Shown piece by piece: positions 1,672-57,688 of a DNA stretch of 64,000 nucleotides. Within the stretch, counting starts at the first letter, position 1; the number at the start of each line of letters is the position of its first letter. Location of the stretch: the IMG/VR virus record IMGVR_UViG_3300020442_000007, positions 32,001-96,000 of that record; one strand, written 5' to 3'. The position numbers were made by a program, and so were the translations under genes. Source of the DNA: a virus. The notes under the pieces were generated by a model that worked only from the letters and a program-made list of their open reading frames with translations, ran no database searches and was not told where the DNA came from.

Positions 1672-1907
1672 AAATGTTTCTAATAGTAATTGCAATGATA
1701 GCTAGTCCAGGTTCTAAGGATACGGATTTATATATAATACAAGAACCTAATTTCAAACAACCTCAACATTGTTTACAATTTGTTCAAATCAATACCCGTC
1801 CTTTAATTGAAAAAGCAAAATCTGTATACCCTACCCAAGAAGTTGAAAATATTTATTGTATTACTGAAGAAAAATTAAAGGTATTAATTAGCGGAACCAA
1901 GGCATGA
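1668..1907 (+). CDS. small secreted/membrane protein with two Cys
   Basis: Hydrophobic N-terminus MKMFLIVIAMIA; AGGA RBS; ATGA overlaps on both sides. Confidence 0.65.
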   Translation: MKMFLIVIAMIASPGSKDTDLYIIQEPNFKQPQHCLQFVQINTRPLIEKAKSVYPTQEVENIYCITEEKLKVLISGTKA

Positions 1908-7674: not shown

Positions 7675-7686
7675 CAAGGATATAAG

Positions 7687-18325: not shown

Positions 18326-18334
18326 GTGTAAAAT
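18306..18334 (+). promoter_or_regulatory. sigma70 promoter
   Basis: TTGACA-17-TAAAAT; overlaps ATG 18333, suggesting a downstream start (18387 or 18420). Confidence 0.7.
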
Positions 18335-36816: not shown

Positions 36817-37550
36817 CAGACTTCAAACAAATATTAAAAGAAGGTTGCACTATATCAAGTAGTGGAACCACTGGCACGCCTAAACAAATTTTTAGATCTC
36901 CAAAAAATTTAGAAGCATGTAATGCTGTTGCTATCAAGGATCAGCATATCACATCAAAGAGCAAAATATTTACTTGCACAAGAATGACTCATGCTGGAGG
37001 GTTATTACTGCAAAGTTTACCTGCATATACATTAGGATGTGATATTCACATTACAAAATTTAATCCTTTTAGTTTTATTAAAGATTTTGAAAAATACACA
37101 CACACCTTTTTACCTCCTGCTATGTGTGAAGCCATAATAAAAACTAAAGGATTTTCAAACGCTAATTTTAACGGAAAAATAATAGCAATGGGCAGTGATA
37201 TAATACCTTGGGATCATATTCGTAAATTTGTAAGCAAAGGCGCAACAGTTATTGCTAATTGGGGTATGAGTGAAATAGGTCCATGTGCAATAAACACAAC
37301 ATTTGAGACACTAAAGTATGTTGACAGGCATGCAGAATGGGCACCTAATGGATTACCTATTATGGGTGAAAATTTAAATTGTTGCTATCAAATTGATTAT
37401 AAAACAGACGAACTACTTGTTAAAGGAGATATCTGTATTCATGATGATTGGTTTGCAACAGGCGATAAAGTGCATTTACATTATAAAATGCCGCAACTAG
37501 GTTATTTTCCTATATTATATTATAAAGCAAGATTAGCACACGCCAGTTGA
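36813..37550 (+). CDS. minimal AMP-binding (ANL) adenylate-forming enzyme
   Basis: SSSGTTGTPK, HAGG, WGMSEIGP, WFATGD; lacks C-terminal subdomain. Confidence 0.8.
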   Translation: MTDFKQILKEGCTISSSGTTGTPKQIFRSPKNLEACNAVAIKDQHITSKSKIFTCTRMTHAGGLLLQSLPAYTLGCDIHITKFNPFSFIKDFEKYTHTFLPPAMCEAIIKTKGFSNANFNGKIIAMGSDIIPWDHIRKFVSKGATVIANWGMSEIGPCAINTTFETLKYVDRHAEWAPNGLPIMGENLNCCYQIDYKTDELLVKGDICIHDDWFATGDKVHLHYKMPQLGYFPILYYKARLAHAS

Positions 37551-38264
37551 AATTCTTTCAACTATGTGATTTAAGGCTGGATAATAATCATCATCTTTTG
37601 GGTCATGCTTACTTAACACATCAGCAAGTTTATCATCTCTTTTACAAAATTCATTAAAACTTATCGTTTTATTTGGTAAACCTAACCCTTCGAAAATTTC
37701 TTGTACTGTATTATTTCTTATAGTAGGAAAAAAATTTGTGATATTTTGATTTTCAATAGCAATTTGTTTTTTCATACCTACATCATCTTTATACCAAAAA
37801 TAATGAGGATATGATATATCCCAACCTCCACAGATATGCCACCATTCAAAACATTCTTCATTAGTTCTTTGAACACCTATAAACTTTGCATCTGGAAACA
37901 TATTTTTTAGATAGTCAAGATGATAAGCAAACCAATGACTTTTGATTATTTTTTTACCATGATTCCAGTCTGTGTAAGGTTTTTTAAAATCCTCAACAAT
38001 TTGTTCTTTGCTAAGTGTATCAAGTATATCAAACTGTTTTCCAAACTCATGATCAGGACCCCAATACGCACCTCTATGCCAACCCCTGGTAACTAATTTA
38101 CCTGTATCAGGATTGATAGTCTCATGATTGTAAACTCTATCAGGGGTTTCATCAGAAATATTTATATCTATGTTTGATGTTATCATACGTAGTATTCCGC
38201 TCCATCTACTGCCTGGAGCACCTGTCGCTAAAATTAAATCTTTACCTGTGTAATCTTCATACAT
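37533..38264 (-). CDS. sulfotransferase-like P-loop protein
   Basis: ILATGAPGSRWS, IIKSHWF, FPDAKFI.V.R; paralogue of 40024..40731. Confidence 0.6.
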   Translation of the reverse strand: MYEDYTGKDLILATGAPGSRWSGILRMITSNIDINISDETPDRVYNHETINPDTGKLVTRGWHRGAYWGPDHEFGKQFDILDTLSKEQIVEDFKKPYTDWNHGKKIIKSHWFAYHLDYLKNMFPDAKFIGVQRTNEECFEWWHICGGWDISYPHYFWYKDDVGMKKQIAIENQNITNFFPTIRNNTVQEIFEGLGLPNKTISFNEFCKRDDKLADVLSKHDPKDDDYYPALNHIVERISTGVC

Positions 38265-39051
38265 TTTTTATTCCTTCTAAAATCATTTCTGCCATAATTT
38301 TATGTGATTCAACTCCAGGATGAAACCCATCTCTTGCTAAATCTACTACAGTTTCTTTTGCTTCAAACGGCACCTTGGATATATTATGTAGACTTGGCAC
38401 AATAGACTTCCACGCCCTTCTTTCACAATATGCAAGAATTAGTCTTGAATTCGGAAACAAACCTTTTAAAAAAAAGTCAAATAATTTTAAACAGTCAACA
38501 TCTGAATTAGTAAAATGTTTTTTGTATCCTTCTTCTTGTTCTAACTTTCTTATTTTATATATTTCACGTAAAGCCCAACCATAATTTTGAAAAAACCTTG
38601 TATCATTTAAAACAACATAATCAGGATTAAAATTTTTAAATTCTATTAATGGATCTATAATATCAGTTAATGAATCAGCTGAGCTAAAATTTATATAAGA
38701 TGCATTTAATTTTTCTGCCACTAAATATGGAAAACTTTCTTCTACATTCACTCCGGTACCTAGACATAAACTTCCACCGGCAAATATAATCTTAACATCA
38801 GCGTCATAATTTGGTTCAGGTCCTCGGAGACCTAAGCTATTCCATCTATATTCTACATGTTTATTTACAGCATCTTTTTGAGCTATATGTGCCGTAAATA
38901 GATCTCTCCCTCTGCCCCCAACCCAAGGTTTACTATTTTCCTCATTATCTTTTCCGTTCCAAAGATCTATTGTGCAAGGTTCGTTAAACATTTGTTTACG
39001 TATCTTAGGTTGTTGTCCTTTTGTTTTTCTTGGGGTAATAGGTTCAGACAT
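38257..39051 (-). CDS. SGNH/GDSL hydrolase-like protein
   Basis: NSLGLRG, FAGGSLCLG.GV, ARDGFHPG..SH (DxxH). Confidence 0.65.
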   Translation of the reverse strand: MSEPITPRKTKGQQPKIRKQMFNEPCTIDLWNGKDNEENSKPWVGGRGRDLFTAHIAQKDAVNKHVEYRWNSLGLRGPEPNYDADVKIIFAGGSLCLGTGVNVEESFPYLVAEKLNASYINFSSADSLTDIIDPLIEFKNFNPDYVVLNDTRFFQNYGWALREIYKIRKLEQEEGYKKHFTNSDVDCLKLFDFFLKGLFPNSRLILAYCERRAWKSIVPSLHNISKVPFEAKETVVDLARDGFHPGVESHKIMAEMILEGIKNV

Positions 39052-40015
39052 TAATTATATGCTCTTTAGATCCGTTGTTCATTAAATTAGTAAACTTTTC
39101 ATTTATAAATCCAGTAGCTTGTAAAGTTATTCTTGGTGTGTAGCCCATATTAGAAGCAGCATGCGGCATATTACACCAATCATACACAACACATTCACCT
39201 GCATCATAACCTTGATAATATGTATTTCCGAACTGCCATACATGTCCATAATCCCAAGGTGTTAAAGCTATCAGTATCCTACGTAACATAAGTGGATTTT
39301 TATCTGCTCCTGCGGCAATCCATTTTTCTCTCCATTCTGGTCTAGCATATCTCATCTGTTGATCAATATGGAAAGGTGTTACTTCTCCTAGACGTTGTAT
39401 ATGCACTCTTGATTGATGTACATCATACATACCTACTGCTTCTAACATTCTAAAAAAAACAGCAGAATCAGGATGAGTATCTCTTCTTTCATTATGAGCA
39501 ATTTGATGATGATACATGCAAGATACATCATCTTTGCCTGATGCACGTTTAATGTCCATCATTTCACCTTCATGTAAATCTTTATCTTGCTGACTAGAAT
39601 TACGTGGTCTATAGTTTCCTATAGTATGTTCTTTACATTTTCTTAAAGCTCTTTGTACACCAGCTTCCCAGTCACCTTTAAATTTACACATAACTGTAAA
39701 AGTTTTTTCTTGTGGATCACCTTTTGGATCAAAATGCCAAGTAGACCGCAATTTATTATGATACCATCTACTAGGAATTCCGTCAACCGTGTAAACATTC
39801 ATGTTAGATTTTTTATGACGTTGTAGTTGCTCCTCTGAATACATATCATCTTGGTAATTGCTATCATTAATGTTCACACCTTCTTCAAGTTGTGGAATTT
39901 GATCCGGTACAAGATCTTTGACACGATCACCGGAATAATAATTAACATTATCTTTATCACCTTCAATTGATTTTTTTAAAATTTTGTTTGCATCATCTGC
40001 GTAATCTTTTTCCAT
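39044..40015 (-). CDS. Fe(II)/2OG oxygenase (Asp/Asn beta-hydroxylase-like fold)
   Basis: HIQRLG..PFHIDQ, RILIAL..W..G, DWCNMPHAASN..PRITLQ. Confidence 0.7.
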   Translation of the reverse strand: MEKDYADDANKILKKSIEGDKDNVNYYSGDRVKDLVPDQIPQLEEGVNINDSNYQDDMYSEEQLQRHKKSNMNVYTVDGIPSRWYHNKLRSTWHFDPKGDPQEKTFTVMCKFKGDWEAGVQRALRKCKEHTIGNYRPRNSSQQDKDLHEGEMMDIKRASGKDDVSCMYHHQIAHNERRDTHPDSAVFFRMLEAVGMYDVHQSRVHIQRLGEVTPFHIDQQMRYARPEWREKWIAAGADKNPLMLRRILIALTPWDYGHVWQFGNTYYQGYDAGECVVYDWCNMPHAASNMGYTPRITLQATGFINEKFTNLMNNGSKEHIINV

Positions 40016-40023: not shown

Positions 40024-40731
40024 CTAAAAATTGTATTCACACACGTTTACATCAAGCACATATCTTCCATTAAAATTATTAACTTCTTTCGGTTGGCTTT
40101 TCTCTATAGAAGAAATATAAAAATCTAACCAATCATATTCTTCTTTTGATTCTAACCCCCAGCGTTCTTTAAAATAATACCTATCACAAACATTAACTCT
40201 TAATTTGTTTTCTCCTACCCAATTATTCGCTGCGGCTACTTCTTCAAATATTTTTTCTTTGAGTAGGTCATAATTTTTATAATATGTATGATAATCTGGA
40301 TAATCAATAGACTCAAATCCTCCAGCACCTTTCCAGCCTCTGAAATTTTTTATTTCAGTTCTAAGCACAATCATTATTTTTGCTAATGGAAAAGTTTTTC
40401 TTATGTAATCTAATTGTAAGGAAAAATGATGACATTTAATAATTCTATAAGTATCCCAAGTTTTGTCAGCATATGGTCCGTCTATTTCTTGAATTATTTC
40501 TTCTTTAGTCAAAGTATCTAGTTTATCAAATTTTTGTCCGTATTCTTGTCCAGGACCCCAGTACGCTCCTAAGTGCTGTACTGGAGATCTTGTATGTGTA
40601 TACACTCTGTCATCTCTGTGATCAGATATGTTAATTGGCATAATAGTATTTTTTGATATTACGTTAGATACTGCACTCCATTTACTACCTGGGGCTCCAG
40701 TAAAGAATATTAGTTTACTTTCATCATACAT
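40024..40731 (-). CDS. sulfotransferase-like P-loop protein
   Basis: IFFTGAPGSKWS, GAYWGP, IIKCHHF, FPLAKIMIVLR. Confidence 0.6.
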   Translation of the reverse strand: MYDESKLIFFTGAPGSKWSAVSNVISKNTIMPINISDHRDDRVYTHTRSPVQHLGAYWGPGQEYGQKFDKLDTLTKEEIIQEIDGPYADKTWDTYRIIKCHHFSLQLDYIRKTFPLAKIMIVLRTEIKNFRGWKGAGGFESIDYPDYHTYYKNYDLLKEKIFEEVAAANNWVGENKLRVNVCDRYYFKERWGLESKEEYDWLDFYISSIEKSQPKEVNNFNGRYVLDVNVCEYNF

Positions 40732-40754: not shown

Positions 40755-41495
40755 TTATTTTGGCTTGTAAAACTCAAAATACAATCTGTCACCGTTATCT
40801 TTTTTAAACTTTTCTAATTCAAGATTGTGTTCTTTTGCTAGTTCATATGCTACTTCAAACGACCAAGGAAAGATATCTACAAAAGGTCCTTTTGGCCATA
40901 AATGCCCAGGATTAGCACGAAAATACATTCTACCTCCAGGCATTAATATTTCTACAAGTTTTGCAAATCTTGTATTAATATCACCTCTATCACCGAAGTT
41001 TAAACTACCGAACACTATGATATGATCATAGCTCTCTGGCTCAACAGCAAATTCTAATATATCAACCATATAGTCTGCACTATTATTATATGGATCTATA
41101 CCAATTAGATTTTTAATTCTATTTTTAAATGGATGATATCCACAACCAAAGTCTAACACCGCTTTTGGATCTGTATTGTTTATTGTATCTACTAATGCCC
41201 ATCCGCTGTATTGATATATTTCAGTTTTAGGTTGCCAAATCTCCCCAAAAAACCTATGCATATATCTTGAATCAAGATCAGATACTAATTCTTTCACAGT
41301 AACATCTAAAGTTTCTATATCAAGTTGTAACTTAGATGACACATTGTCTTTAAACTTACGTAACCTAGCTGGTGACCAAGGTAACGAACCGATATTTGTA
41401 TCGATTGTAATCTGATCATTAATATTGTTATACTTAGGTAAATTGAAGGAGTTTTTTAAATTTTCGTCGATTAGACTAAAAATTCGAGTGTTCAT
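40755..41495 (-). CDS. class I SAM methyltransferase with N-terminal ACP-like segment
   Basis: VLDFGCG, IGIDP, YDHIIVFGSLNF, LMPGG. Confidence 0.8.
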   Translation of the reverse strand: MNTRIFSLIDENLKNSFNLPKYNNINDQITIDTNIGSLPWSPARLRKFKDNVSSKLQLDIETLDVTVKELVSDLDSRYMHRFFGEIWQPKTEIYQYSGWALVDTINNTDPKAVLDFGCGYHPFKNRIKNLIGIDPYNNSADYMVDILEFAVEPESYDHIIVFGSLNFGDRGDINTRFAKLVEILMPGGRMYFRANPGHLWPKGPFVDIFPWSFEVAYELAKEHNLELEKFKKDNGDRLYFEFYKPK

Positions 41496-41668
41496 AAAAA
41501 AAATCTCCTTTTTGATAAATAAATGTATGCAATAATAAAAAAAGATTCACTTTTAAAAATTTTTTTATCCGCATCATATAATTACTTATGTTATATGTAT
41601 TATTTAAGGATCAACTCTGAAACTTAAAAATTTAATAATGAAGTATAAACTAAAGGAGATATAACATT

Positions 41669-42724
41669 ATGAAGAAACTAATCATTGGAGTCTTTATGGC
41701 TTTGACGATGTCAGCTACAACAGCTTTTGCTGATTATACGCTGATTGTTCCTCAGGCACCTGGTAAGGGTACTTCTGTATGGAGCGAAATTATCGCTAAG
41801 AACTTAGAAAAGTTCATCGGTGAACCAGTCGTGGTTCGTCATATTCCAGGCGCAAGAGATATTCCTGGTTTTAACAAGTTCCACAACAGCCTACGTTTTG
41901 ATGACAAAACAATTATGGTTGCACACGGTGGTAACGGTGTGTCGTACTTGTTGGATAAAGTTGACTACAACTATTTCGACTATGAACTAATGGGTTCTAT
42001 GAACAATGATATTGTTCTTGGTAAACATGCTGGTGCTGATGAAAAATCAGGAAACTGGACTATTGCAGGTGGATCAGGTTTTGAACCAGATGCAGCGGCA
42101 GTGGCAATGTTACTTTGTGGTCCACAAGGTGACAACACAGTAGACGACTATCTAAAATGTTGGAGAGAACGTGTAACTTGGGTTAACGGTGTATCAGGAG
42201 GCGAAAAGCGTCTTGGTTTTAAAAACGGTGAATTTGATGTAGCACGTGAATCGCCTGCGGCTTGGAAACGTTTCTACGAAGGTATCGAAGGTAATGAACT
42301 TTGGTTCACACACGGTATCCTAGACTTGGAAAATAAAGTACAAATGGCAGACCCAAACTTTCCAGGTACACAGTTCGAGGACTTGTACGAAAAGTTATGG
42401 GGCGAAGCACCAAAAGGTGATTTGTATGAAGCATATCGCTTAACACGTAACTGGCGTGATGCTATCCAAAAGTCTCTTTGGGTAAACAAAGGCAATCCTA
42501 ATGCGGCAAAGATCAAAGCTGCTGTAACTGAAATGATTAATGATCCAGTTGCGAGTGCTGAAATTTATGCTAAAACAGGAACTTATCCTTGGATCCAAGA
42601 TGGCCCAGCATTATTAGCTACTCTAAAATCCCTAATTACAGAGAAAGCTCTTAAAGATGCGGTTAAATGGAATCAGGAAGCATATGGCTTTCCATCAATT
42701 TATAAGCCAGAGCTTTTAAAGTAA
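41669..42724 (+). CDS. tctC: tripartite tricarboxylate transporter substrate-binding protein
   Basis: Signal peptide ..TTAFA; LIVPQAPGKGT, IGEPVVVRHIPGA; adjacent to tctA. Confidence 0.8.
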   Translation: MKKLIIGVFMALTMSATTAFADYTLIVPQAPGKGTSVWSEIIAKNLEKFIGEPVVVRHIPGARDIPGFNKFHNSLRFDDKTIMVAHGGNGVSYLLDKVDYNYFDYELMGSMNNDIVLGKHAGADEKSGNWTIAGGSGFEPDAAAVAMLLCGPQGDNTVDDYLKCWRERVTWVNGVSGGEKRLGFKNGEFDVARESPAAWKRFYEGIEGNELWFTHGILDLENKVQMADPNFPGTQFEDLYEKLWGEAPKGDLYEAYRLTRNWRDAIQKSLWVNKGNPNAAKIKAAVTEMINDPVASAEIYAKTGTYPWIQDGPALLATLKSLITEKALKDAVKWNQEAYGFPSIYKPELLK

Positions 42725-42735
42725 AGGATTAACCT

Positions 42736-44244
42736 ATGGACTATGTTATCTGGGCATTAATTGGCACCATGTATGGAATGCTAGTTGGTATTATACCTAT
42801 TGCAGGTGTAACTACCGCCCTGATAACTGTCTTTAGCATGGGAGCATACTTTATGGCTGACCCTTATTTGGGGTTAGTCTTTCTTACTGCAATAGTAGCA
42901 AGTTGTGCAAGTGCAGATAGTTATACAAGTATTCTTACAGGCATACCAGGAGCAAGTACAACTGCGGCCTGTGTTATAGATGGTTATCCAATGGCGAAAA
43001 AAGGCCAAGCCTCAAGAGCAATGGGCATTGCTATTGCTGACTCTACTTTTAACGGAGTTGTATTTGCAGCACTGACATTCTTTTTACTTCCTTATTATGG
43101 GAAGATTATAGTATTATTTGGACGTCCAGAGTTTCTGGGCTTCATGACAATGGCACTAGCCTGTGTAGGCTTTGTGGCAAGTAAAAACGTATTTTTAAGT
43201 ATATGTGCAATCATATTCGGACTAGCAGTAGGTATGGTTGGCGAAGATGTTGTAAGTAATCCTAGACTAACATTTGGTTGGGAATATTTACAAAATGGAA
43301 TAGGAATGGTAGTTTTACTATCAGGCCTGTTTGGAGTACCAGAATTATTAGATGGATTTAGAAGAAAATTAAAATCCGCAGCACCACCAATAAATGGAAG
43401 TTATTGGACAGGTCTTTTCCAAGGCTTCCGTGATGTAAAAACACACTGGCGTGATATGATACGTGGTGGGTTGATTGGTTTCGTTACTGGTTTATTACCA
43501 GGTGTAGGAGGCGCAGTAGGTGACTTCTTAGCATACGGTGCCACAAAGGCTGCACATAAAGAAAAAGACCAAGAAGTTCCTTTTGGTGAAGGTAACCCTG
43601 TAGGATTATTAGGGTGTGAAGGAGCAAACAATGCACAAAAGGTGTCTAGTATGATTCCTGCATGTTTGTTTGGAATACCAGCTGCGCCTTTTGCCGCAAT
43701 GGTAATGGCAATATGTATGTATTTCGGTATGGAGATTGGTACACCAAGTCTATTAGATGATATACAGTTTACAAATAGTTTAGCATTTGGTTATATTTTT
43801 GGGACTATTGGTGTTGCATTGTTAAGTATATTTTTATACAAGTATATACTTAAAATATTAGAAGTGCCTTTTTGGATTTACGCAACTTTTATTTTAGCAG
43901 TAATTGTTTATGCTAATATGCAATACACAGGTGGTTGGGAAGATTTAGCTTTACTTGCTATCTTAAGTGCTATAGGAGTCTTATGTAAAATGTGGAACAT
44001 TAGTAGACCAGCAATTCTAGTTGCATACGTTGTAGCTTTTAAGATAGATGAATACTTTTGGGGAACATTGCAGATTTATGGTTATAAACAATGGAAACCA
44101 GGATTAAGTTCAATGTCTGACTTTAGGTGGTTTGAATTATTTAACATATATAACCATCCTATATTCCTTATATGTATTGTTGTTGCATTAGGAATATTTA
44201 TAAACAGTTTAGTTAGAAAAGATAAAGGACTTGATTACGTATGA
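42736..44244 (+). CDS. tctA: tripartite tricarboxylate transporter large permease
   Basis: About 12 TM; IPGASTTAACVIDGYPMAKKG, GLLPGVGG..FLAY, EGANNA..SMIP..FGIP. Confidence 0.92.
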   Translation: MDYVIWALIGTMYGMLVGIIPIAGVTTALITVFSMGAYFMADPYLGLVFLTAIVASCASADSYTSILTGIPGASTTAACVIDGYPMAKKGQASRAMGIAIADSTFNGVVFAALTFFLLPYYGKIIVLFGRPEFLGFMTMALACVGFVASKNVFLSICAIIFGLAVGMVGEDVVSNPRLTFGWEYLQNGIGMVVLLSGLFGVPELLDGFRRKLKSAAPPINGSYWTGLFQGFRDVKTHWRDMIRGGLIGFVTGLLPGVGGAVGDFLAYGATKAAHKEKDQEVPFGEGNPVGLLGCEGANNAQKVSSMIPACLFGIPAAPFAAMVMAICMYFGMEIGTPSLLDDIQFTNSLAFGYIFGTIGVALLSIFLYKYILKILEVPFWIYATFILAVIVYANMQYTGGWEDLALLAILSAIGVLCKMWNISRPAILVAYVVAFKIDEYFWGTLQIYGYKQWKPGLSSMSDFRWFELFNIYNHPIFLICIVVALGIFINSLVRKDKGLDYV

Positions 44245-44987
44245 TGCACAAAACAAATTGGACTAAAACTTTAGAACCTGCAGACAATTATAAAAGTAAT
44301 TGGGATTGGACTGTAGCACACAGTGAATATCATTTTGATAATAATATTCAAGACAAGGAAGGCGAATGGGTTAAAGTTTTAGGCCGATTTGATAATCCTG
44401 AGTTATGGAAAGCAGATAGAGATAGATTAGTTAAAAATGCGACTAAAGCTATAAATTGGGAAACAAGAAAATTCTTTGGACATAAAGAAGATGCATCTCC
44501 AATGTTGAAACAAGAAGAATATGATATTACACAAGGAGGGGGTGATCCTAAAAAACTTATGCTTACAAATATGAAAGATGAGTTAGAGGATTATCCAATG
44601 CTTGTAAAAATGAAAGAACACTTTGGCGTAGTAGGTGGTAAGGACGAATTAAAATATCGTGCCCATGTTCAACTTACAGGTCAAATGTTTAATTTACACA
44701 TTGACAAACTTTGGGATAGATGCATAGAAGATCCTGAACAAGTATGTCGTATTACATTTTTCTTAGATGATTGGCAACCAGGACAGTTCTATATGTATGG
44801 TAATTTTATCTATGAAAGATGGAAAGCCGGAGAAGCTCATATATTTGATTGGCCTAATGTGCCACACGCAACCGCTAACGCAAGTAATTTTGCAAGACCC
44901 TGCATACAGATTACAGGCTTAAAATCAGATAAAACTAGGGAAATTATTGCTAATGGATCGCGTGATACAGTATGGACACTAAAGTAA
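44241..44987 (+). CDS. Fe(II)/2OG oxygenase (Asp/Asn beta-hydroxylase-like fold)
   Basis: HVQLTGQMFNLHIDK, DWPNVPHATAN..R..IQITG. Confidence 0.7.
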   Translation: MMHKTNWTKTLEPADNYKSNWDWTVAHSEYHFDNNIQDKEGEWVKVLGRFDNPELWKADRDRLVKNATKAINWETRKFFGHKEDASPMLKQEEYDITQGGGDPKKLMLTNMKDELEDYPMLVKMKEHFGVVGGKDELKYRAHVQLTGQMFNLHIDKLWDRCIEDPEQVCRITFFLDDWQPGQFYMYGNFIYERWKAGEAHIFDWPNVPHATANASNFARPCIQITGLKSDKTREIIANGSRDTVWTLK

Positions 44988-45172
44988 GAAGTCTCGTAAA
45001 GACAGTATCATGGAGATTAACTGGTACACTTTGCACATTTTTAATTAGTTACGCAATATTACGTGACATTAGTATAAGCGGTTCTATTGCAATTATACAA
45101 CTTACTGCTAACACATTTATATTTTATATACACGAACGTATATGGAATATAATAAAATGGGGTAAACTTTGA
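44972..45172 (+). CDS. DUF2061 small membrane protein
   Basis: RSLVKTVSWR...FYIHERIW..IKWG. Confidence 0.8.
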   Translation: MDTKVRSLVKTVSWRLTGTLCTFLISYAILRDISISGSIAIIQLTANTFIFYIHERIWNIIKWGKL

Positions 45173-45810
45173 AACCTTTACTTACTATAATGACTGGCCC
45201 GCAAGGAGCCGGTAATCACTTATTCAGTAAAGCACTAGGACAAAATAAAAATATATTTGTATGGCCTGCATTACAAGAAAAGTATTGGGAAGGTCATGAT
45301 TTAGAACCTTTTGCAGAATGCTGGAAAGATCCTTTAAAACTAAATGATTTTGACTGGAAACAAAGTCAGTATTTCATCACAAGTATCAGTTGCCCATATT
45401 TTGATGATGGTGTAGAAACTATTCCAGCATATGATAATTTTATAGAAGTAGCAAGAAAGTTTTGTAGAATTCAATTTCTCATAATAGGGAGAGATAGTAA
45501 TATTTTAAAATTACAACAAGAACGTGTAAGAGAAAAACACACAACACCGTTTTTTATGAAACAGTTAGATAGTATAATACTTGGCAATAAAACAATATTT
45601 GCTAGTCAAGAGTTATTATACTTGTACAAGATAAGATATTTACAATCGTTAGAAAAACAACTAGGATTGTTACCAAATGAAGTAACATTAGATGATACTA
45701 AACTACTAGAAATATTATCTAAAGATGCGAATAAGAAATACATATCACAAGCAGAATCAACATTAGATAAAACAATTCAATTAGCAAGTAGCAGGAAAGG
45801 CGCAGTATGA
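45169..45810 (+). CDS. sulfotransferase-like P-loop protein
   Basis: LTIMTGPQGAGNHLFSKAL, IIGRD.NIL..QQ.R. Confidence 0.55.
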   Translation: MKPLLTIMTGPQGAGNHLFSKALGQNKNIFVWPALQEKYWEGHDLEPFAECWKDPLKLNDFDWKQSQYFITSISCPYFDDGVETIPAYDNFIEVARKFCRIQFLIIGRDSNILKLQQERVREKHTTPFFMKQLDSIILGNKTIFASQELLYLYKIRYLQSLEKQLGLLPNEVTLDDTKLLEILSKDANKKYISQAESTLDKTIQLASSRKGAV

Positions 45811-46232
45811 AAATATTAATATTTGGCTTGCCTGGTAGTGGTAAAACCACGCTGGCAAAACCTTTTGCAGAATTAATTGGTGCAATTCATATAAATGCAG
45901 ATGCTGTAAGAGACAAATATAAAGACTGGGATTTTAGTTTAGAAGGCAGAGTCAGACAAGCACAAAGAATGCGTTATCTAGCGGATGGTGTTGTTAGTGC
46001 AGGAAAAGTTGCAGTTGCTGACTTTATTTGTCCTACAGAAAGAGCAAGACAAGAATTTGATGCAGATTATCAAGTTTGGATGGATACTATTAAGGAAGGT
46101 AGATACGAAGACACAAATAAAATGTTTGAAAAACCTTCTAGCGTTAACTATCATGTTTCAAAATGGTTTGAGGATACACATGCACAATTAATGGAGGTAG
46201 TGAAAAATTACATGGAGAAAAATAATGTTTAA
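45807..46232 (+). CDS. cysC: adenylyl-sulfate (APS) kinase-like
   Basis: IFGLPGSGKTTLA, NADAVR, DFSLEGR, DFICP, FEKP. Confidence 0.75.
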   Translation: MKILIFGLPGSGKTTLAKPFAELIGAIHINADAVRDKYKDWDFSLEGRVRQAQRMRYLADGVVSAGKVAVADFICPTERARQEFDADYQVWMDTIKEGRYEDTNKMFEKPSSVNYHVSKWFEDTHAQLMEVVKNYMEKNNV

Positions 46233-46635
46233 CGTTTTTAAGCCTACAACACAAATGTTAGGACGTTGGCAACCTTGGCACAAAGGACACACTGAATTAT
46301 TTAAACGTGCTTTAGCTGAAACAGGACAAGTATGTATTATGATCAGAACTGTGCCGCAAGACACAGATGCATCAGGCGGACGTACAATGACGCAGGATGA
46401 CAATCCATTTATTGTGGCTGATGTAGAAGATAATATAAAAAAGGAACTTGCTAAAGAGGGTTTTGAATATTATAGGGAATACAATATTATGATTGTTCCG
46501 AATATTGTAGATATTAGTTATGGTCGTGGGGTAGGATATACCTTTACAGAGCATGACTTAGGAAAAGAGATACATAGTATTAGTGCTACAGAATTACGTG
46601 CCAAGATGCGTAAAGAAGGTAAGCTGCAGACTTAA
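46225..46635 (+). CDS. HxGH nucleotidyltransferase (cytidyltransferase/ATP-sulfurylase-like)
   Basis: GRWQPWHKGH, YGRGVGY, ISATELR. Confidence 0.8.
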   Translation: MFNVFKPTTQMLGRWQPWHKGHTELFKRALAETGQVCIMIRTVPQDTDASGGRTMTQDDNPFIVADVEDNIKKELAKEGFEYYREYNIMIVPNIVDISYGRGVGYTFTEHDLGKEIHSISATELRAKMRKEGKLQT

Positions 46636-46656: not shown

Positions 46657-47373
46657 ATGGCATTTAGATTTGATAAAGATAAGATGAAATATTTGACTAA
46701 TCCTGATGACTATAAAAGTAATTGGGAATGGACAAAAAGTAATAGTAATTACCATTTTGATAAAAACACTATCGATGGTGTCAGTGAAACATTTAGAGTG
46801 TGTGGAACTTTTCATGGTGATTGGGAAGAAGAATTAAAACAAGTTATAAAAGATAGCAAACCAGTTACTTGGGCAACAAGAGGTAAAAAAGGCGAACGTA
46901 AAGACAAGTTTATAGAACAAGAAGAATATGATCTTACATCTGCAGGAGCAAGTGCTGACTTAGAAGTTTCTAACTTTAATAGAAAATGTGAGAAGTATAC
47001 CAAGATAAATGAAATAGCAGAATATTTTAAACTTGAAAATTTTCAAAAAAGAATACATGTACAAACTACAGGGCAAGTTTGGAATCTACACATAGACAAA
47101 CTTTATCAATTTAATCCTGAGGATCCATCTAAAGTAGTAAGAATAACAATCATGCTGAATGACTGGGAACCAGGACAATTTTATATGTATGGTAATCGAA
47201 TGTATGAAAGATGGAAAGCAGGTGAAATACATATATTTGATTGGCCTAATGTTCCTCATTCTACTGCAAATACAAGTTATGTACCAAGAGTAAGTTTACA
47301 ACTTACAGGTGTTAAAACAGAAGACACTGACAGAATACTTAACGAACGAGATCACTATTATTCTGTGGAATGA
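46657..47373 (+). CDS. Fe(II)/2OG oxygenase (Asp/Asn beta-hydroxylase-like fold)
   Basis: HVQTTGQVWNLHIDK, DWPNVPHSTAN..PRVSLQ; close paralogue of 44241..44987. Confidence 0.7.
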   Translation: MAFRFDKDKMKYLTNPDDYKSNWEWTKSNSNYHFDKNTIDGVSETFRVCGTFHGDWEEELKQVIKDSKPVTWATRGKKGERKDKFIEQEEYDLTSAGASADLEVSNFNRKCEKYTKINEIAEYFKLENFQKRIHVQTTGQVWNLHIDKLYQFNPEDPSKVVRITIMLNDWEPGQFYMYGNRMYERWKAGEIHIFDWPNVPHSTANTSYVPRVSLQLTGVKTEDTDRILNERDHYYSVE

Positions 47374-47378: not shown

Positions 47379-47732
47379 ATGATAGACATACTAGTTGCAA
47401 ATATAATCTATGTATCTTATAGATTGCTTGTAACTGCTCATATAGTAAAATTTTTATACAAGTACATTCCTTACGGCTTTGCAGTTTTATTAGCCGCACA
47501 AATAAGTTTTTTATACGATGGGGGTGTATTTGCTTATCTATTTCAGGCAAAAGAATTACCAGCACTAATGGATTTTGTTCAAGCTAACGTATTATATACT
47601 TTTCGAGTTGGTGTGGCATGGTGGATTATTAAGATACTATGGGATCAATTGAGTAATTATTATTTGGCTGTGTTTATGGGTGCTCAGCTTACATTCATAG
47701 TAGACTATTTTATTTTTGAGGGAGTGTTTTAG
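47379..47732 (+). CDS. small membrane protein (about 4 TM)
   Basis: Hydrophobic, two-fold internal repeat (Y..AV..AQ.SF.YD / YY.AV..AQ.TF.VD). Confidence 0.7.
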   Translation: MIDILVANIIYVSYRLLVTAHIVKFLYKYIPYGFAVLLAAQISFLYDGGVFAYLFQAKELPALMDFVQANVLYTFRVGVAWWIIKILWDQLSNYYLAVFMGAQLTFIVDYFIFEGVF

Positions 47733-47743: not shown

Positions 47744-48385
47744 ATGCAAGGAACTAGTTTTATGGATATACAAGATTTTACAGAGTTTGATCAAAGTAGA
47801 TTAAAATTTTTCCAATTGCCTGAAAATTTATCTAGGTTTAGTGCAAAAAGAAACAATGCAAAAATCTCTAAAGAACACGATATACGTGAAATATTTCCTC
47901 TTGATGCAAATATAGTTGATGCTGGTTGTGGAGTAAATCCTTACAAAAAGTATTTTCCTAATTTGATAGGATTTGATTTTGTTGATTATGGTAATCAAGA
48001 TTATGTATGCAAAATTTTAGATGCTCCAATCGAACTAGAAAGTCAAGACGGTGTCTTGTGTTTAGGAGTTTTACATGAGTGTCCGGATGATTATCATCTA
48101 CCTAACATAGAAAAAATGTTATCTTGGTTACGGCCAGGCGGGCTACTTATAATGAGACATAAAAAAGAAACAGAAGCTGATTATGAAGAAAGAAGAAAAC
48201 AACACGGATTTTGGATAGGAATAGGATCTTGGCCACGTAGTAGGATTGATGAATTTACAAATAATTTAAATGTTAATTTAGAATGGATTGTTGAACATTC
48301 AACAAAAAGAACATTTAAACATAATGGTCAAGATTTAAAAAAGACATTTGATGGTCATATATGGTGTTGGAGGAAATATGTATAA
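47744..48385 (+). CDS. class I SAM methyltransferase
   Basis: IVDAGCG, IGFDF, DGVLCLGVLH, LRPGG. Confidence 0.82.
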   Translation: MQGTSFMDIQDFTEFDQSRLKFFQLPENLSRFSAKRNNAKISKEHDIREIFPLDANIVDAGCGVNPYKKYFPNLIGFDFVDYGNQDYVCKILDAPIELESQDGVLCLGVLHECPDDYHLPNIEKMLSWLRPGGLLIMRHKKETEADYEERRKQHGFWIGIGSWPRSRIDEFTNNLNVNLEWIVEHSTKRTFKHNGQDLKKTFDGHIWCWRKYV

Positions 48386-51636: not shown

Positions 51637-51665
51637 ATTATATACTTTCTTATGCAAAATGTCAA
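51637..51665 (-). promoter_or_regulatory. sigma70 promoter (perfect consensus), probably leaderless transcript
   Basis: Minus-strand TTGACA-17-TATAAT, ATG 5 nt after -10. Confidence 0.85.
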
Positions 51666-52825
51666 CCATATCGTATTGCGTCAAATAATTTTAGAAACAT
51701 AGGCATGTGGGACCTTTCTAAGAATTTGGCTTTATTAACTTTAGCAAATTTATTCAACGTTTTCAACGCATTTTTTGTTTCTTCTGATCTACAATTATTT
51801 TTTAACCTTGTTAATTCATGACAAATTAAGTCAGCACGTATACTTACATCTGCATATGTATCATATTTTTCATTTAACAAATCAAAAAAAGTAAAATATC
51901 CTTGCTGATTTAAATATTTCATAGTTTGTTGACATCCAAAAACCATAAATGGCTTTCCCATTACTAGTAACTGCCAAATATCCAGATTAGTGAACAAAGC
52001 GTTTACTTCACTCATGTAAGCCATTCTGTTATTAGGTGCCCAAGGTGTTAAAATTGATATAAGACTATTAGCATGATAATCAATACTATCGTTCTTATGT
52101 ATTATACTACCATGATCATACAATTCGTTTGCCTCTAAAGCAGAATATAGCTGTACACAATTTGGTGCTTGTGGGTATTCTGAAAAATTATGAAATAAAA
52201 GTTTAGGATTGAATTGATCTATGTCAAAATCTAACACAGGCATAGGATCATTTATTGGTTTAAAAAAATTTTTATATTTTACCGTGTCGTTATTGATAAT
52301 TAATCTTGATTCAATTTGCCACCAATCTATAGAATATGACTTATAAGGATCTAATAGCTCTTGGTATGTATTATTCAAATCAGCGGTAACTAAAATAATA
52401 TTTTCCACAGGAACTTTGCATCTCATAAACATTTCTGCCACATGTCTAAGCCTAATTACTTCGTTAGCACCTTGTAATGTTTGCCCTAGCAATAAGACTT
52501 TCATTTTTCCTGCACGTAAATAGTCTAAAGTTTTATGCGGTATATTAATATTGATACCATAAGATACTTCAAATGGGTAGAATATGTCTTCTTTAAATCC
52601 TCTTACAGGATTAAATATATCATCTCCTGTGAATAACTGTATTTCACAATCATTTTTTACCATAGTATAATAAAAACTAGAAATAACTTCTACCATACTG
52701 TCTATGCTGTCTCTATCACCAAACGGATAAGGCCAAGTCTCAGGATGATTATCATGATAAGATGTTATACCGTTAGGAACAGGCCCGCAATCCTTAATAA
52801 CATCATAATAAAAATTAATCGCCAT
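51662..52825 (-). CDS. glycosyltransferase-like hypothetical protein
   Basis: C-terminal MGKPFMVFG..MKYL..QGYFTF..NEKYD pattern seen in phage GT-B-like proteins. Confidence 0.45.
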   Translation of the reverse strand: MAINFYYDVIKDCGPVPNGITSYHDNHPETWPYPFGDRDSIDSMVEVISSFYYTMVKNDCEIQLFTGDDIFNPVRGFKEDIFYPFEVSYGININIPHKTLDYLRAGKMKVLLLGQTLQGANEVIRLRHVAEMFMRCKVPVENIILVTADLNNTYQELLDPYKSYSIDWWQIESRLIINNDTVKYKNFFKPINDPMPVLDFDIDQFNPKLLFHNFSEYPQAPNCVQLYSALEANELYDHGSIIHKNDSIDYHANSLISILTPWAPNNRMAYMSEVNALFTNLDIWQLLVMGKPFMVFGCQQTMKYLNQQGYFTFFDLLNEKYDTYADVSIRADLICHELTRLKNNCRSEETKNALKTLNKFAKVNKAKFLERSHMPMFLKLFDAIRYG

Positions 52826-54101
52826 ATTCTTTATACCATTTATTCCATATTTCAGTTAATTTAGGATGAATTTTTGTTACATCTTGATTCCTAATTCTAT
52901 CATAGGTAATTGTTCTTCTTACAAAATGTGTACGCCAATTTTTGTATTTGTCTATTGTTTCTAAATCTACTGGATCTGGTAATTCTAATCTTGCAATAAC
53001 ATGAGGCAAACGACTAATCCTTAATTGTTCATCTGTCAATAGATGTAATCTTGATTTTAATTCTTCTGCTATTTCGATTTTATAACTAAAAGGTATAAGA
53101 TCTATCATTAAATCTATAGGGCCATTTACTGGATTAAACACAATGTTTGTAGATTTGCCATGCTTATACCAATAATCTACTAATTTAGGTAAATCCCATG
53201 CATTGTAAATTTGTGCTGTTGCAAGTAATTGTACTGTGACTGGCATTTTTAAATAATGCTGATATGCTTTATCTAATTCATTCCAGTTTGCTCCATATCT
53301 TATGTAATCGTTTGCATATCCTATACCACACATACTAAATTGCAAGTCAACTTGTCTAAATTTAGGCAAAAGATTTGTTGTTTTACTCTTTAATCTACTG
53401 CCATTGGTAGTAATATCAAGCATTAAATGTGTATTTCCGCTTTCTACACACCATTTTAGTAGTTTATACACGCCTGGCATGAATAACGGTTCGCCGCCTG
53501 CCAGTTTTATAGAAGCCATTTTAGGAATATGTTTTTTTACACTTTCAAAACATACAGGATCGTCAATCCAATCTTGTACATCTTTCCATTCTTCGTTCAT
53601 TATTTCTTGTGTTTCAGGATGTTGTTGCTGTTCTTTAGCAATAGTGCTACTAATTGCACCAAAACACATTCTGCAACCAAAATTACAAAGACGTCCTGGT
53701 CTATAATCCGCCCATGTTGGACCGCCGGTATTATTACCTTTCTCAATATCAAGACGCAAATCTGGATTCTTTTTGAGTCTATATTTTAAATAAACCTCAT
53801 TCAAACTTTCTCTGTCTGAGCCGCCACCTTGTTTATCTTGTTTCCAGCAAGTTGTACAACGTTTTTCAAATTTTCCTTCTAACATTGTCTTACGAACCTC
53901 TTGCATGTCTTCACTTTCCCATACTTCTTGTAAATCATGCCCTTGTACATTTTTTACAATAGGAAAATTATAGTCTGCTAAACAACAAAGATTAACAAAT
54001 CCGTCAGTTGCAATATATTGATGTGTAAAAGGCATGGTACAAAATGCAGGATTATTTTTTATTTGCCATTCTACATTTAAATTATATTTCTTTTCCATCA
54101 C
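52815..54101 (-). CDS. radical SAM protein with N-terminal SPASM/twitch domain
   Basis: CTMPF..DGFVNLCC, CTTCW; CNFGCRMC; AGGEP; TTNG. Confidence 0.9.
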   Translation of the reverse strand: MMEKKYNLNVEWQIKNNPAFCTMPFTHQYIATDGFVNLCCLADYNFPIVKNVQGHDLQEVWESEDMQEVRKTMLEGKFEKRCTTCWKQDKQGGGSDRESLNEVYLKYRLKKNPDLRLDIEKGNNTGGPTWADYRPGRLCNFGCRMCFGAISSTIAKEQQQHPETQEIMNEEWKDVQDWIDDPVCFESVKKHIPKMASIKLAGGEPLFMPGVYKLLKWCVESGNTHLMLDITTNGSRLKSKTTNLLPKFRQVDLQFSMCGIGYANDYIRYGANWNELDKAYQHYLKMPVTVQLLATAQIYNAWDLPKLVDYWYKHGKSTNIVFNPVNGPIDLMIDLIPFSYKIEIAEELKSRLHLLTDEQLRISRLPHVIARLELPDPVDLETIDKYKNWRTHFVRRTITYDRIRNQDVTKIHPKLTEIWNKWYKEYGD

Positions 54102-56340
54102 AATCCTTTATCATTTGTGCAATATCTGACAACGAGTCTTGCCAAGATTCATTTCTTATTTTATCTAATCTCTCCATCCAAGGCCACAAACCTTCATATG
54201 CTACTTCGTCTGGCTCTTTATCCCACATATGTGTTAATATACTTTTGCATCTCTGTTCCACTCTTCTACAAAAAGCAACTTCATCTACATTAGAATCCCA
54301 TCTAGCATACAATCTATCTAGGAAATTTTTGTACTTTTTATCAATGTATTTTTTATATACCACAGGTAAATTTTGTATGTTAAGGACATCAGGTCCATAT
54401 AAATTATGTACAATAATAACTTCTTCAATCCTATTCCAATTTTGCTCCTTCATCCACCATTGCATTTCAGGATAGTGCAAAACGTTTTGTATACTTAATG
54501 TAAGGGTAATACTTGCAATAAGTTTTTCAAATCCATCTTCTCTATCTACACGGCGCATATTTTTTAATACAGTTGAAAACTTTCCTGGATGCCGAATAAA
54601 TTCAAAATGTTTGTTTATCCCATCTATACTCATTCCTAGATTGACTTGCTTAAAATGTTTCCATTGCTTGAATACTGCACTAGGTACTCCTGCCATATTA
54701 GTATTATAGTCTAAAGTAACTTCGTTTGCAGTTCCTTTGTCAATATAGTAATCTAATAATTCTCTATGTTTTAAATTAATTGTTGGTTCGCCGCCTGTAA
54801 AATAATACCTTTTGATAGTATCTAAATTATTCATTATATGTTTCCATAAACTAGAATATGTTTGATCTGGATCAAATAGGTCAGGCACAGTATTTGTACC
54901 GTCTGGTAAAGTTTCAATTTTGACTTTGTTATGTCCTCTATAGTTAAAACGTGTATCTTCAGGATGGAGTTTTACCCAATCGTCGTACCATAAACTGCTA
55001 TCTGTAGGACCACAGCTTCTGCATTTGAGATTACATTTGTTTCCAAATCTTAAGTCCATATATGTAATAGGAAAATCAGTATCTTTAATCGAACCATCTT
55101 TTTCTGTGTTAACTATTGCTTTGTAATAAACATCAGTATACAACTTGCGAGTCCATTGTCTTTTGCTACCTATACCATTAGTCTCCTCGTTAGTACATAG
55201 TTTACATATTTCAGGATCTATACCACTTATCATCTCTTTTCTAATTTGTTTCCATACTGGTGAATTTCTATGTTTAGTGATATCATCTTTGCCGGTCAAA
55301 AGTGTACCATCTTCTTTGTATACAGTTCCAAACGGTGAATTTATCATTTGACAACACATTCTAATGCTTCCGTCAGCATTTGTAGCTAAATGATTCCAGG
55401 GTATAGGGCAAAAAGCATTCCATCTATCTTTATGTACAAGCATGTTTTCCTGTACTGCATCTATGACTTCAGTAGGTTTAATAAGCCTACTTCTTAAATA
55501 AGTTTTAATTCTTTTTCCTTGCGGAGTATCATTATCTACTAAACCTGGCTTACGATAAAGTGCTTCGAGTACTTCTTGATCAGTGTCATGTAAAGCAACA
55601 ATTTCTAAAACATCGTCAGGACAGTCTGGATGTAATATCATTTCTATTCTTTGTTCTGAAGTTCTTACAATATCTAAATCAAATGATATATTATTTGTTT
55701 GTGTTATTTCGCGTTGTACTATGGGTTTGACAAAACCCTGTAAAACTTTATTATTTTTCTTAATCCATTTTTGCACAATTTTTTTAAACTTTTTTGTATC
55801 TAAATTAGGAAAAATTCTTTGTAATTGTACAATAAGACTACCACTAGATTCATGCAATCCATCTATGTTTATAAGATGCATGTTAGCAAAATGATTTTTA
55901 TATTGTTTTAAAGCATCTAAATCTTTTTGAAACTGTCCTACGTGATTTTCAACAAACTTTGTAGGTAAATTTTCTACTTTATTAAGTTTTTGCCAAGCTA
56001 AATTAGTCCAATATTCGAAATTTTTTGTTAAGTGAAATCCAAGAACGGTCATTCTTTGATCCCAATAATTAATTACTTCAGGATCATAGTGATCTTTGTA
56101 CAAATCATGTTTATTTGGATCGTCTTCTCCAACATATTCCCACGGCAAATTTCTATCTCTACAATATCCTATTTTACATTTTGTAAACCATCTGTTTTCT
56201 CCAACGTCTTTTGTAGGTATGGCATTGATTTCAGGTACACATTGGCTCAAAGCGTATGTGATAATTTCTCCGCCGGTGCCGGCTGTATATAATACAAGGT
56301 AATTAACCCTGTTGTTGGAAAAATCTAATTTCATTATCAC
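54082..56340 (-). CDS. fusion: sulfotransferase-like P-loop domain + helical linker + SPASM/twitch + radical SAM
   Basis: VLYTAGTGGE N-domain (paralogue of 57688..58572); CPIPW..DGSIRMCC; CNLKCRSC; TGGEP. Confidence 0.85.
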   Translation of the reverse strand: MIMKLDFSNNRVNYLVLYTAGTGGEIITYALSQCVPEINAIPTKDVGENRWFTKCKIGYCRDRNLPWEYVGEDDPNKHDLYKDHYDPEVINYWDQRMTVLGFHLTKNFEYWTNLAWQKLNKVENLPTKFVENHVGQFQKDLDALKQYKNHFANMHLINIDGLHESSGSLIVQLQRIFPNLDTKKFKKIVQKWIKKNNKVLQGFVKPIVQREITQTNNISFDLDIVRTSEQRIEMILHPDCPDDVLEIVALHDTDQEVLEALYRKPGLVDNDTPQGKRIKTYLRSRLIKPTEVIDAVQENMLVHKDRWNAFCPIPWNHLATNADGSIRMCCQMINSPFGTVYKEDGTLLTGKDDITKHRNSPVWKQIRKEMISGIDPEICKLCTNEETNGIGSKRQWTRKLYTDVYYKAIVNTEKDGSIKDTDFPITYMDLRFGNKCNLKCRSCGPTDSSLWYDDWVKLHPEDTRFNYRGHNKVKIETLPDGTNTVPDLFDPDQTYSSLWKHIMNNLDTIKRYYFTGGEPTINLKHRELLDYYIDKGTANEVTLDYNTNMAGVPSAVFKQWKHFKQVNLGMSIDGINKHFEFIRHPGKFSTVLKNMRRVDREDGFEKLIASITLTLSIQNVLHYPEMQWWMKEQNWNRIEEVIIVHNLYGPDVLNIQNLPVVYKKYIDKKYKNFLDRLYARWDSNVDEVAFCRRVEQRCKSILTHMWDKEPDEVAYEGLWPWMERLDKIRNESWQDSLSDIAQMIKDCDGKEI

Positions 56341-57688
56341 TATATCCTACTAGCTTACCGCTATCATGACCCCTTATAGGTACTAAACTTATTGCTCCTA
56401 TCTGCCTACCATTTGCTCCTAAATCATTTATTCCTAATTTAATAATTTTATCATAAAAACTTTGAGCTCTATCTAACATGCCAGGCGGTGTCATTAATTT
56501 AATTTCTAACCAATGATCATCTGGTACTTTTTTATGCCTTTGAATAATAATTTCACAGTTTTTAATAAACCTTTCTTCATTACCAGGATAAAGATCCATA
56601 CTTCCGAAATGAGCACTCATATTTACACTATTAATATATTTACTTGCTTCAGTCCAGTATTTTGTGCTACGACTACCATTTGTAGTAACAAGGACCCATT
56701 GATTCCTACTTTTTAAATGTTTCAAGATATCTAAAAATTTAGGATTCATTGTAGGCTCACCGCCTCCAAAATTCCATCTTATAGTTTCTCCTTTACTCCA
56801 AGAGTCTATGGCTTTATCTATTGTTTCTATAATTTTTTCATAGTCATGATGTGCTTCTTTATTATTATGCACACTTGGCCAGCAATAATCACAATCATAA
56901 TTACATCTTCTTGTTATATCCCACAAGATTTGATGATTAATTGGAAAATTCATTTCTATACCGACTGGAGTAGTATCAAATGCATTTTGTGGATTTTTTA
57001 CTGGGTCTTGAAAATGGCCTTTATCTTGACCATCATAACCATATCTAGTTACATTTAAATTTTCTAAAGCAGGCTCGTCTTTTGCTTTACTTAAAATTAC
57101 ATCTGCTCCGCAACCACAGCTATCAAAAGGACAACTAGTCCATTGTTTAGGAGTTTCCCAACCTGTAAAAATACTTCCCTGTAATCCCCAAATATCATCA
57201 TTCTTTTCTGCTTTCCATTGCCAAGTAGCAGGATCCTTCATAAATTGTTTATACGGATCATCAAAGAATTGTTTTTCTAATTTTTTAATAAAGGACATTA
57301 GCGTAATATGTTGCTCACAAGTTTCCCAATTTTTTTTTGGCATAGGCCAACCATCTCTTGTATTTTCTTCAATCCATTCTTTGTGCGGATATGCTCCTAT
57401 AAATGATTCTCTATATTCTTTCCATAATCTATCAACTAAATCAGGATCATGATTTGTAAAATTTTTAACTTTTTGTTCATGAACTTTACCGTACTGAGAT
57501 GCACTTGCACAATTTGCAATCCACACATTACCATCATAGTCTATGTATAAACTTCTTACACCTGCACTACATTTCCAATCTTTCCAATGGTTAAGATTAT
57601 TAGCAATAACTTCATCAACACTATACAGACTATACTGATTATTTTTATTGTATATTCTTAATTGCCTATTGCCTGTAGGTTGGTCCAT
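56303..57688 (-). CDS. radical SAM protein with split N-terminal twitch domain
   Basis: WKCSAG..IDYDGNV..C [insert] CPFDSCGC; CNYDCDYC; GGGEP; TTNGSR. Confidence 0.88.
   Translation of the reverse strand: MDQPTGNRQLRIYNKNNQYSLYSVDEVIANNLNHWKDWKCSAGVRSLYIDYDGNVWIANCASASQYGKVHEQKVKNFTNHDPDLVDRLWKEYRESFIGAYPHKEWIEENTRDGWPMPKKNWETCEQHITLMSFIKKLEKQFFDDPYKQFMKDPATWQWKAEKNDDIWGLQGSIFTGWETPKQWTSCPFDSCGCGADVILSKAKDEPALENLNVTRYGYDGQDKGHFQDPVKNPQNAFDTTPVGIEMNFPINHQILWDITRRCNYDCDYCWPSVHNNKEAHHDYEKIIETIDKAIDSWSKGETIRWNFGGGEPTMNPKFLDILKHLKSRNQWVLVTTNGSRSTKYWTEASKYINSVNMSAHFGSMDLYPGNEERFIKNCEIIIQRHKKVPDDHWLEIKLMTPPGMLDRAQSFYDKIIKLGINDLGANGRQIGAISLVPIRGHDSGKLVGYSDNEIRFFQQQG

Follow-up and report, generated by a model that had tools for sequence, protein, structure and literature searches.

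This locus raises the question of whether a virus can bring its own solute importer into a cell, and whether that importer can dispense with a subunit found in its bacterial counterparts. The locus lies in a 64,000-nucleotide stretch of DNA (the window; bases 32001–96000 of the 165,479-bp IMG/VR record IMGVR_UViG_3300020442_000007, CheckV completeness 47%), where a gene for a periplasmic solute-binding protein (tctC, 41669..42724, plus strand) is followed by a gene for a permease (tctA, 42736..44244, plus strand), both of the type found in tripartite tricarboxylate transporters (TTTs). The initial annotation had read the two genes as a genuine phage TTT-type binding protein and permease without a recognisable TctB, the remaining subunit, and had put forward a small membrane open reading frame (ORF) at 47379 as its stand-in; the first of these readings stood and the second did not. 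We consider it probable that the pair is a phage-encoded, TctB-less, binding-protein-dependent importer, one that probably feeds phage tailoring enzymes.

The 502-aa permease matches PF01970 with an E-value of 7.2e-86, covering profile positions 2–422 of 423, and is collinear with the 504-aa Salmonella TctA (25% identity, residues 4–459 versus 24–473), bearing out its earlier description as a full-length TctA. No TctB domain is fused to it. The AlphaFold2 (AF2) model of TctA has a mean predicted local distance difference test score (pLDDT) of 83; its structural matches are weak because, to our knowledge, no TTT permease structure has been solved, and they were not used as support. TctA proteins carry a duplicated motif, G-Hy3-G-Hy3-G-Hy2-P-G-Hy-G, that marks both halves of the molecule (Winnen 2003, via PMC5812351), and we found the glycine motifs of both halves invariant in 30 members of the phage clade described below (G10/G14/G18/P21/G24 and G244/G248/G252/P255/G256), with G258 nearly invariant and the first motif copy reading P-I-A-G instead of P-G-x-G.

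The 351-aa binding protein is far more divergent. A Pfam search with it gave no match even at E 10, and a PF03401 search of the whole 165-kb record also gave none, leaving the protein outside the sequence definition of TctC/Bug proteins. A profile of 35 homologues reaches BugE, BugD, Bug27 and Polaromonas TctC faintly (E 0.1–1.3), and hhalign against Salmonella TctC gives an E-value of 5e-4 over the first 91 residues. The AF2 model (pLDDT 91.4, predicted TM-score 0.88) has as its top Foldseek matches every solved TctC-family protein. The protein begins with a Sec-type signal peptide, as had been proposed (residues 1–21; 41669..41731, plus strand), in which a hydrophobic leader ends in A-F-A before D-Y; the A-x-A cleavage site is conserved, with A21 invariant and A19 and Y23 nearly invariant across the 35 homologues. 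With both a Bug-type class II periplasmic binding fold and a signal peptide, the protein is read, on its predicted structure, as a true but very divergent TctC. It founds a large family outside Pfam and missed by current domain libraries; its database members number over 1,000, and each is either unnamed or labelled hypothetical. The first loop of the family reads P-G-K-G-T-S, as compared with P-G-G-x-x-D in ordinary TctC members, and invariant residues are concentrated in a G-G-S-G loop and in those that follow strands 1, 2 and 3. The invariant positions include P28, Q29, G32, G34, T35, W38, H86–N89, G137, W171, R181, R193, W212 and H215. From the general form of Bug structures we take the loops in which they concentrate to be those that hold the ligand, and the concentration of invariant residues there therefore suggests one conserved ligand class for the whole family.

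No tctB gene lies between tctC and tctA, as noted initially, the two being separated by only 11 bp (42725–42735) and the tctA stop overlapping the start of the next gene. PF07331 scans found no TctB match at E≤10 in the 165-kb record, nor any at E≤1 in five relatives, one of which is a complete 342.6-kb genome. A custom TctB profile, built from the C-terminal domains of 75 fused TctA–TctB proteins and Salmonella TctB and run on every ORF of at least 40 aa in the record itself and in 92 related loci, gave a best match of E 0.078. The small subunit with four transmembrane (TM) segments that characterizes TTTs (PF07331) was accordingly found neither as a separate protein nor as a fused domain in the searches run, TctB being a poorly conserved protein; a TctB fused inside TctA is ruled out by the collinearity with Salmonella TctA, and fused forms fall outside the phage clade. 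The ORF named in the initial annotation (47379..47732, plus strand) does exist and encodes a 117-aa protein with about four hydrophobic segments, but it is not TctB-like: BLASTP against Salmonella TctB gave no match, it is absent from the custom-profile matches at E up to 10, its Atlas scores (0.81–0.82) are at chance level, and it is present in only 14 of 88 loci. DUF2061 and DUF6552 proteins were likewise rejected as stand-ins, each having about two helices, occurring in fewer than a quarter of the loci (19 and 15, respectively) and giving no significant TctB-profile match.

The transporter could nonetheless be tripartite, with a third subunit supplied either by the host as TctB or by the phage as one of these small membrane proteins (117-aa, DUF2061 or DUF6552), an arrangement that we regard as unlikely though well short of negligible. 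Sequence conservation in TctB is so low that a dedicated review could not find it by sequence search (PMC5812351), and its absence as judged by profile search is for that reason weak evidence; both membrane subunits were essential in Comamonas TpiBA (PMC5812351), and TctB may come from the host. A bacterial metagenome-assembled genome (MAG) that contains a phage-type pair together with three canonical TctA genes makes a host with TTT parts plausible, and all three small membrane families recur near the pair. However, no single small membrane family accompanies it and none resembles TctB, 29 of the 88 loci lack any small ORF of at least two TM segments within about 6 kb, and the DUF2061 and DUF6552 proteins fall short of four helices. 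Phage TctA is also only about 25–30% identical to cellular TctA, making a conserved interface with a host TctB doubtful. For an importer that works without TctB, modelling of BctCBA places both the elevator and the scaffold domains in TctA alone, with TctB only a possible extension of the scaffold (bioRxiv 10.64898/2026.07.27.740893).

We then asked whether the pair belongs to the virus. The window, from a genome of about 33% GC, codes for a T4-type DNA polymerase (phrog_262, E 2.5e-200) whose nearest isolates are the jumbo phages Sinorhizobium phage Phosso, Agrobacterium phage Atu_ph07 and the Rak2-like group (42–50% identity), and also for an endolysin, an exonuclease, a QueE-like enzyme and several radical SAM (S-adenosylmethionine) proteins. 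The cassette is found as well on a 342,607-bp relative with direct terminal repeats that is rated 100% complete. TerL, PhoH and ClpX genes adjoin the tctCA pair in relatives, and some other viral contigs carry a large terminase gene two genes upstream of tctC. The setting is a giant uncultured aquatic jumbo phage, and the pair has the viral flanks, the bona fide viral genome and the conservation within a viral lineage that define a viral auxiliary metabolic gene.

Such genes could also reach a viral contig through chimeric assembly, through mis-binning of a host fragment or as a passenger without function recently picked up from a host, and the GC content of 0.395 at 42–44 kb versus about 0.32 in neighbouring DNA would fit a cellular source, as would six MAG contigs that hold relatives, one of them among bacterial-looking genes. 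This explanation is largely refuted, and we assign it only a very slight chance. The 17-gene order is repeated at 98% identity on a 155-kb contig from an independent assembly, and the order recurs in dozens of viral contigs; chimerism at the locus, which the initial annotation had flagged for checking, is excluded because the gene order is identical in independent assemblies. The higher GC content lies mainly within tctC and is lineage-wide, phage-type neighbours are found on three of the six MAG contigs, and the terminase upstream of tctC in some contigs and the monophyly and selection described next all argue against a cellular origin. The ratio of nonsynonymous to synonymous divergence (dN/dS) is 0.05–0.13 for both genes at dS of at least 0.7, indicating strong purifying selection.

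The pair is overwhelmingly viral and lineage-specific. A pattern scan for the binding protein found the family encoded on 487 IMG/VR contigs, and an alignment-based scan of 185,579 prokaryote species (one genome each) returned only the six contigs, all from MAGs of scattered phyla; the same scan of prokaryote genome contigs with a single binding protein sequence gave no match. INPHARED phage genomes contained no relative of the binding protein, and their TctA matches were only contaminant-like. Whether the permease forms a phage-specific clade had been posed as a question for phylogeny, and it does: in a FastTree tree of 79 TctA sequences, where the outsiders bear no organism labels, 14 phage-type permeases form one group with a Shimodaira–Hasegawa-like support of 100 on a stem of 0.64, all 14 of them 470–507 aa long. 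An exhaustive HMMER search with TctA gave about ten representative clusters at 36–62% identity, all of 470–504 aa, beyond which identity falls to about 30% and many matches are 610–730-aa permeases with a weak C-terminal TctB domain. Searches seeded with the deep clade members P0250 (about 40% identity) and P0247 returned only viral contigs, and at those loci a divergent binding protein adjoins the permease and no TctB is present. The two genes abut in 74 of 79 two-gene loci (gap of -76 to +23 bp) in either order, C-A being found mainly with 501–507-aa permeases (34 of 37 loci) and A-C with permeases of about 473–493 aa; at the remaining five, an oxygenase or methyltransferase gene lies between them.

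One of the MAG copies stands apart. On a 33.7-kb contig of the MAG 'Marine bacterium B5-7' (L004:6518-9677), a trio of phage-type TctA, divergent TctC and a sulfotransferase-like protein is flanked by bacterial-looking genes for YcaO, DUF2058, a CCG/4Fe-4S GlcF-like protein and a 2-oxoglutarate (2OG) oxygenase, and the 4.4-Mb genome has three ordinary TctA genes besides. This copy, which may be truly cellular or else the remnant of a prophage, could offer a hint as to the host or donor lineage.

We compared the phage pair with known systems. Like canonical TctCBA/BctCBA (Salmonella, Bordetella; TC 2.A.80), it combines a TctA of about 500 aa bearing the duplicated glycine motif with a secreted TctC-fold protein in one operon; unlike them, it is virus-encoded, has no TctB, has a TctA only 25% identical and a binding protein too divergent for PF03401, and is ordered C-A or A-C rather than C-B-A. 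Because no TctB was found and the binding protein lacks the PF03401 signature, we have filed the pair, on its sequence features, as a bipartite viral variant of the TTT rather than as a canonical member. Among phages, a partial parallel is cyanophage PstS, a phage-encoded phosphate-binding protein that raises uptake in nutrient-poor water, that depends wholly on the host membrane transporter and that is close to host genes. In both cases the phage supplies a high-affinity periplasmic binding protein, but here it also brings the permease, and the family is virus-specific. Fused TctA–TctB systems, described as 'rare' in a review (PMC5812351), also have two genes rather than three and are very often the nearest relatives outside the phage TctA clade (proteins P0259–P0393; about 30% identity); their 610–730-aa permeases keep a C-terminal TctB domain (weak PF07331), however, whereas the phage permeases of 470–507 aa, including the 502-aa TctA studied here, have none. 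Of the 65 outsiders closest to the phage clade in the tree, roughly two thirds are fused.

Archaeal stand-alone TctA proteins also lack a detectable TctB, which has been read as pointing to TctA as the core transporter (Winnen et al. 2003, via PMC5812351), but the archaeal genes lack TctC as well, while the phage keeps a dedicated binding protein. On viral contigs, a TctA domain was reported as a putative auxiliary gene of SUP05 viruses, with a 'protein domain hit only' (Roux et al. 2014, PMC4164917), a mention repeated in a 2019 review; the 2014 paper described no binding protein, clade or gene context. Beyond these two, the searchable literature yielded no paper on a phage TTT and nothing on one in jumbo phages.

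Codon usage and RNA data bear on how strongly the binding protein might be expressed. The initial annotation had described tctC as richer in AAC, TTC, GGT and CGT than its neighbours, and the figures agree: tctC has a third-position GC content (GC3) of 0.32 versus a window mean of 0.21 (standard deviation 0.04), with AAC used for 0.65 of asparagines versus 0.25, TTC for 0.40 of phenylalanines versus 0.15, GGT for 0.67 of glycines versus 0.44, and CGT for 0.73 of arginines versus 0.20. The bias is lineage-wide: of 74 loci that are related and whose counts are thus not independent, 81% have a tctC richer in C-ending two-fold codons than the genes around it, and 80% one richer in CGT for arginine; tctA does not share the bias. 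Recent transfer would explain such a pattern less well than would selection for efficient translation of a periplasmic protein made in large amounts. Three other genes in the window have raised GC3 (0.30–0.35), namely those for a phrog_17812 protein (18333-18824), a QueE-like radical SAM protein (22887-23861) and an ATPase (27251-28345), and because none of them encodes a virion protein, the high-expression reading could not be calibrated within the window. In two marine studies, metatranscriptome contigs cover pieces of tctC, of its 5' leader and of the junction between tctA and the next gene at 99–100% identity, with 100% matches to parts of tctC, one mismatch in ten pieces and most of the coverage in tctC; the runs were chosen using this same stretch and are contigs rather than reads, so that expression level and transcript ends are not readable from them. 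The proposed high expression of tctC is consistent with the lineage-wide codon bias together with these contigs.

Upstream of tctC, a strong ribosome-binding site (AAGGAGA, 41653..41659, plus strand) can be read from the sequence 9 nt 5' of the start codon, and the divergent intergenic region contains a candidate sigma-70-like promoter (TTAAAA-18-TATAAT, 41553..41582, plus strand, 10 of 12 positions matching); promoter and terminator scans of the region gave site counts not above shuffled expectation, and the promoter is no more than a candidate. About 120 nt inside tctA, a hairpin with a 10-bp stem is followed by a T-rich tail (42855-42879, plus strand), a kind of site that occurs here at a chance-level count. 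If the hairpin attenuated transcription, it would yield more tctC than tctA transcript.

The genes around the pair form an apparent tailoring island. Divergent from tctC is a gene for a class I SAM-methyltransferase-like protein (40755..41495, minus strand; D-x-G-C-G invariant; 70 of 87 loci), whose family profile gives weak matches to methyltransferases in the PDB, and a paralogue lies at 47744..48385 (plus strand). The gene whose start overlaps the tctA stop (44241..44987, plus strand) encodes an HxD...H protein resembling 2OG oxygenases of the Asp/Asn beta-hydroxylase type, with H153, D155 and H209 conserved; its Atlas look-alikes score 0.97 to viral PF05118 clusters, PF05118 proteins occupy the same position in distant loci, and two further paralogues are found at 39044..40015 (minus strand) and 46657..47373 (plus strand). 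A sulfotransferase-like P-loop protein with a conserved G-x-P-G-S-x-W-S (40024..40731, minus strand), from a family in which 7 of 21 members match PF13469 Sulfotransfer_3 (best E 2.6e-5), likewise has a second copy at 37533..38264 (minus strand). Downstream on the plus strand follow a 66-aa DUF2061 membrane protein with about two TM segments (44972..45172; PF09834, E 3.4e-19) that is not TctB-like, a P-loop protein (45169..45810) with a conserved G-P-Q-G-S-G-N-H and no match in Pfam or the PDB, a 141-aa P-loop kinase resembling adenosine 5'-phosphosulfate (APS) kinase (45807..46232; PF01583, 33.4 bits versus a cut-off of 21.1), and a small protein with a weak, below cut-off match to cytidylyltransferase-like nucleotidyltransferases (46225..46635; PF01467, E 0.0015). 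Class IV aminotransferase and adenylate-forming genes are found just upstream.

Eight of the ten copies of the methyltransferase-, oxygenase- and sulfotransferase-like families and the unmatched P-loop family in the 165-kb record lie within 6 kb of tctCA, and these four families still sit beside the pair where TctA identity has dropped to 40%, in the most distant subclade, and at the possibly cellular copy. The APS-kinase-like, small nucleotidyltransferase-like and DUF2061 genes often accompany it. This linkage is the best functional clue to the pair, and the imported compound is probably acted on by the neighbouring enzymes; the constant company of oxygenase, methyltransferase and sulfotransferase-like proteins would also offer a concrete route to the ligand. 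A distant subclade with a 504-aa TctA, on contigs up to about 200 kb (L091:2862-4281, 7512-8853), has different companion genes (a class I glutamine amidotransferase, a small PF05118 hydroxylase, DUF2452 and a short-chain dehydrogenase fragment), and the enzyme set around the importer therefore varies between subclades.

Taken as an importer, the pair would work as follows. During infection the phage would produce two proteins: a TctC-fold binding protein, which the Sec machinery of the host would secrete into the periplasm, and a TctA permease, which would enter the host inner membrane. The binding protein would capture one particular small anionic solute with high affinity and deliver it to TctA, which would carry it into the cytoplasm by ion-coupled symport, probably of the elevator type, in a system for which the phage encodes no TctB subunit. 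The imported compound would most likely be a substrate or co-substrate of the SAM methyltransferase, the AspH-like 2OG oxygenases, or the sulfotransferase-like and APS-kinase-like proteins around the pair. A bolder version, which we hold only tentatively, is that TctA and the binding protein form a complete transporter, the first natural TctB-free binding-protein-dependent TTT, and that it feeds phage hydroxylation, methylation and sulfation of one imported molecule. If so, giant aquatic phages would import and chemically remodel one specific dissolved compound during infection.

Three further points weigh against the reading of the pair as an importer that feeds these enzymes. The neighbouring families occur in multiple copies and readily duplicate in tandem, a tendency that inflates the apparent linkage, and the RNA contigs could derive from contaminating DNA. 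In addition, a modelling preprint places a helix-4 glutamate in the BctA substrate pocket and proposes that it binds substrate or cation (bioRxiv 10.64898/2026.07.27.740893), and we found that this acidic residue aligns to an alanine in phage TctA, with an invariant aspartate three residues later; because of this replacement, the chemistry of phage TctA may differ from that of known members. The same difference from BctA in putative substrate-site residues, together with the position of the pair in an apparent biosynthetic or tailoring island, would also suit a role other than nutrient import, such as sensing, keeping out other phages or exporting something that the neighbouring enzymes make. 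We find this improbable, as binding-protein-dependent secondary transporters are known only as importers (TRAP, TTT; PMC5812351), no sensor kinase is linked to the pair, and it is hard to see what a secreted high-affinity binding protein would do for export.

Phages seldom carry complete transporters. If the importer, conserved on hundreds of contigs from large aquatic phages, is real, these viruses would alter what the infected cell takes up from seawater or lake water, and not only its metabolism. The clade would also be a natural experiment on the role of TctB, for if permease and binding protein suffice, TctB would be dispensable for the core mechanism.

Two other features of the window were recorded. 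The ORF at 1904-5458 (plus strand) encodes an 1184-aa protein that joins deoxyribonucleotidase-like (5'-3'), ParB-like nuclease and CCA-adding-type tRNA nucleotidyltransferase regions in a single chain. Downstream of the island and on the opposite strand, 51662-57688 (minus strand) holds a run of large radical-SAM-domain proteins of 428, 752 and 461 aa.

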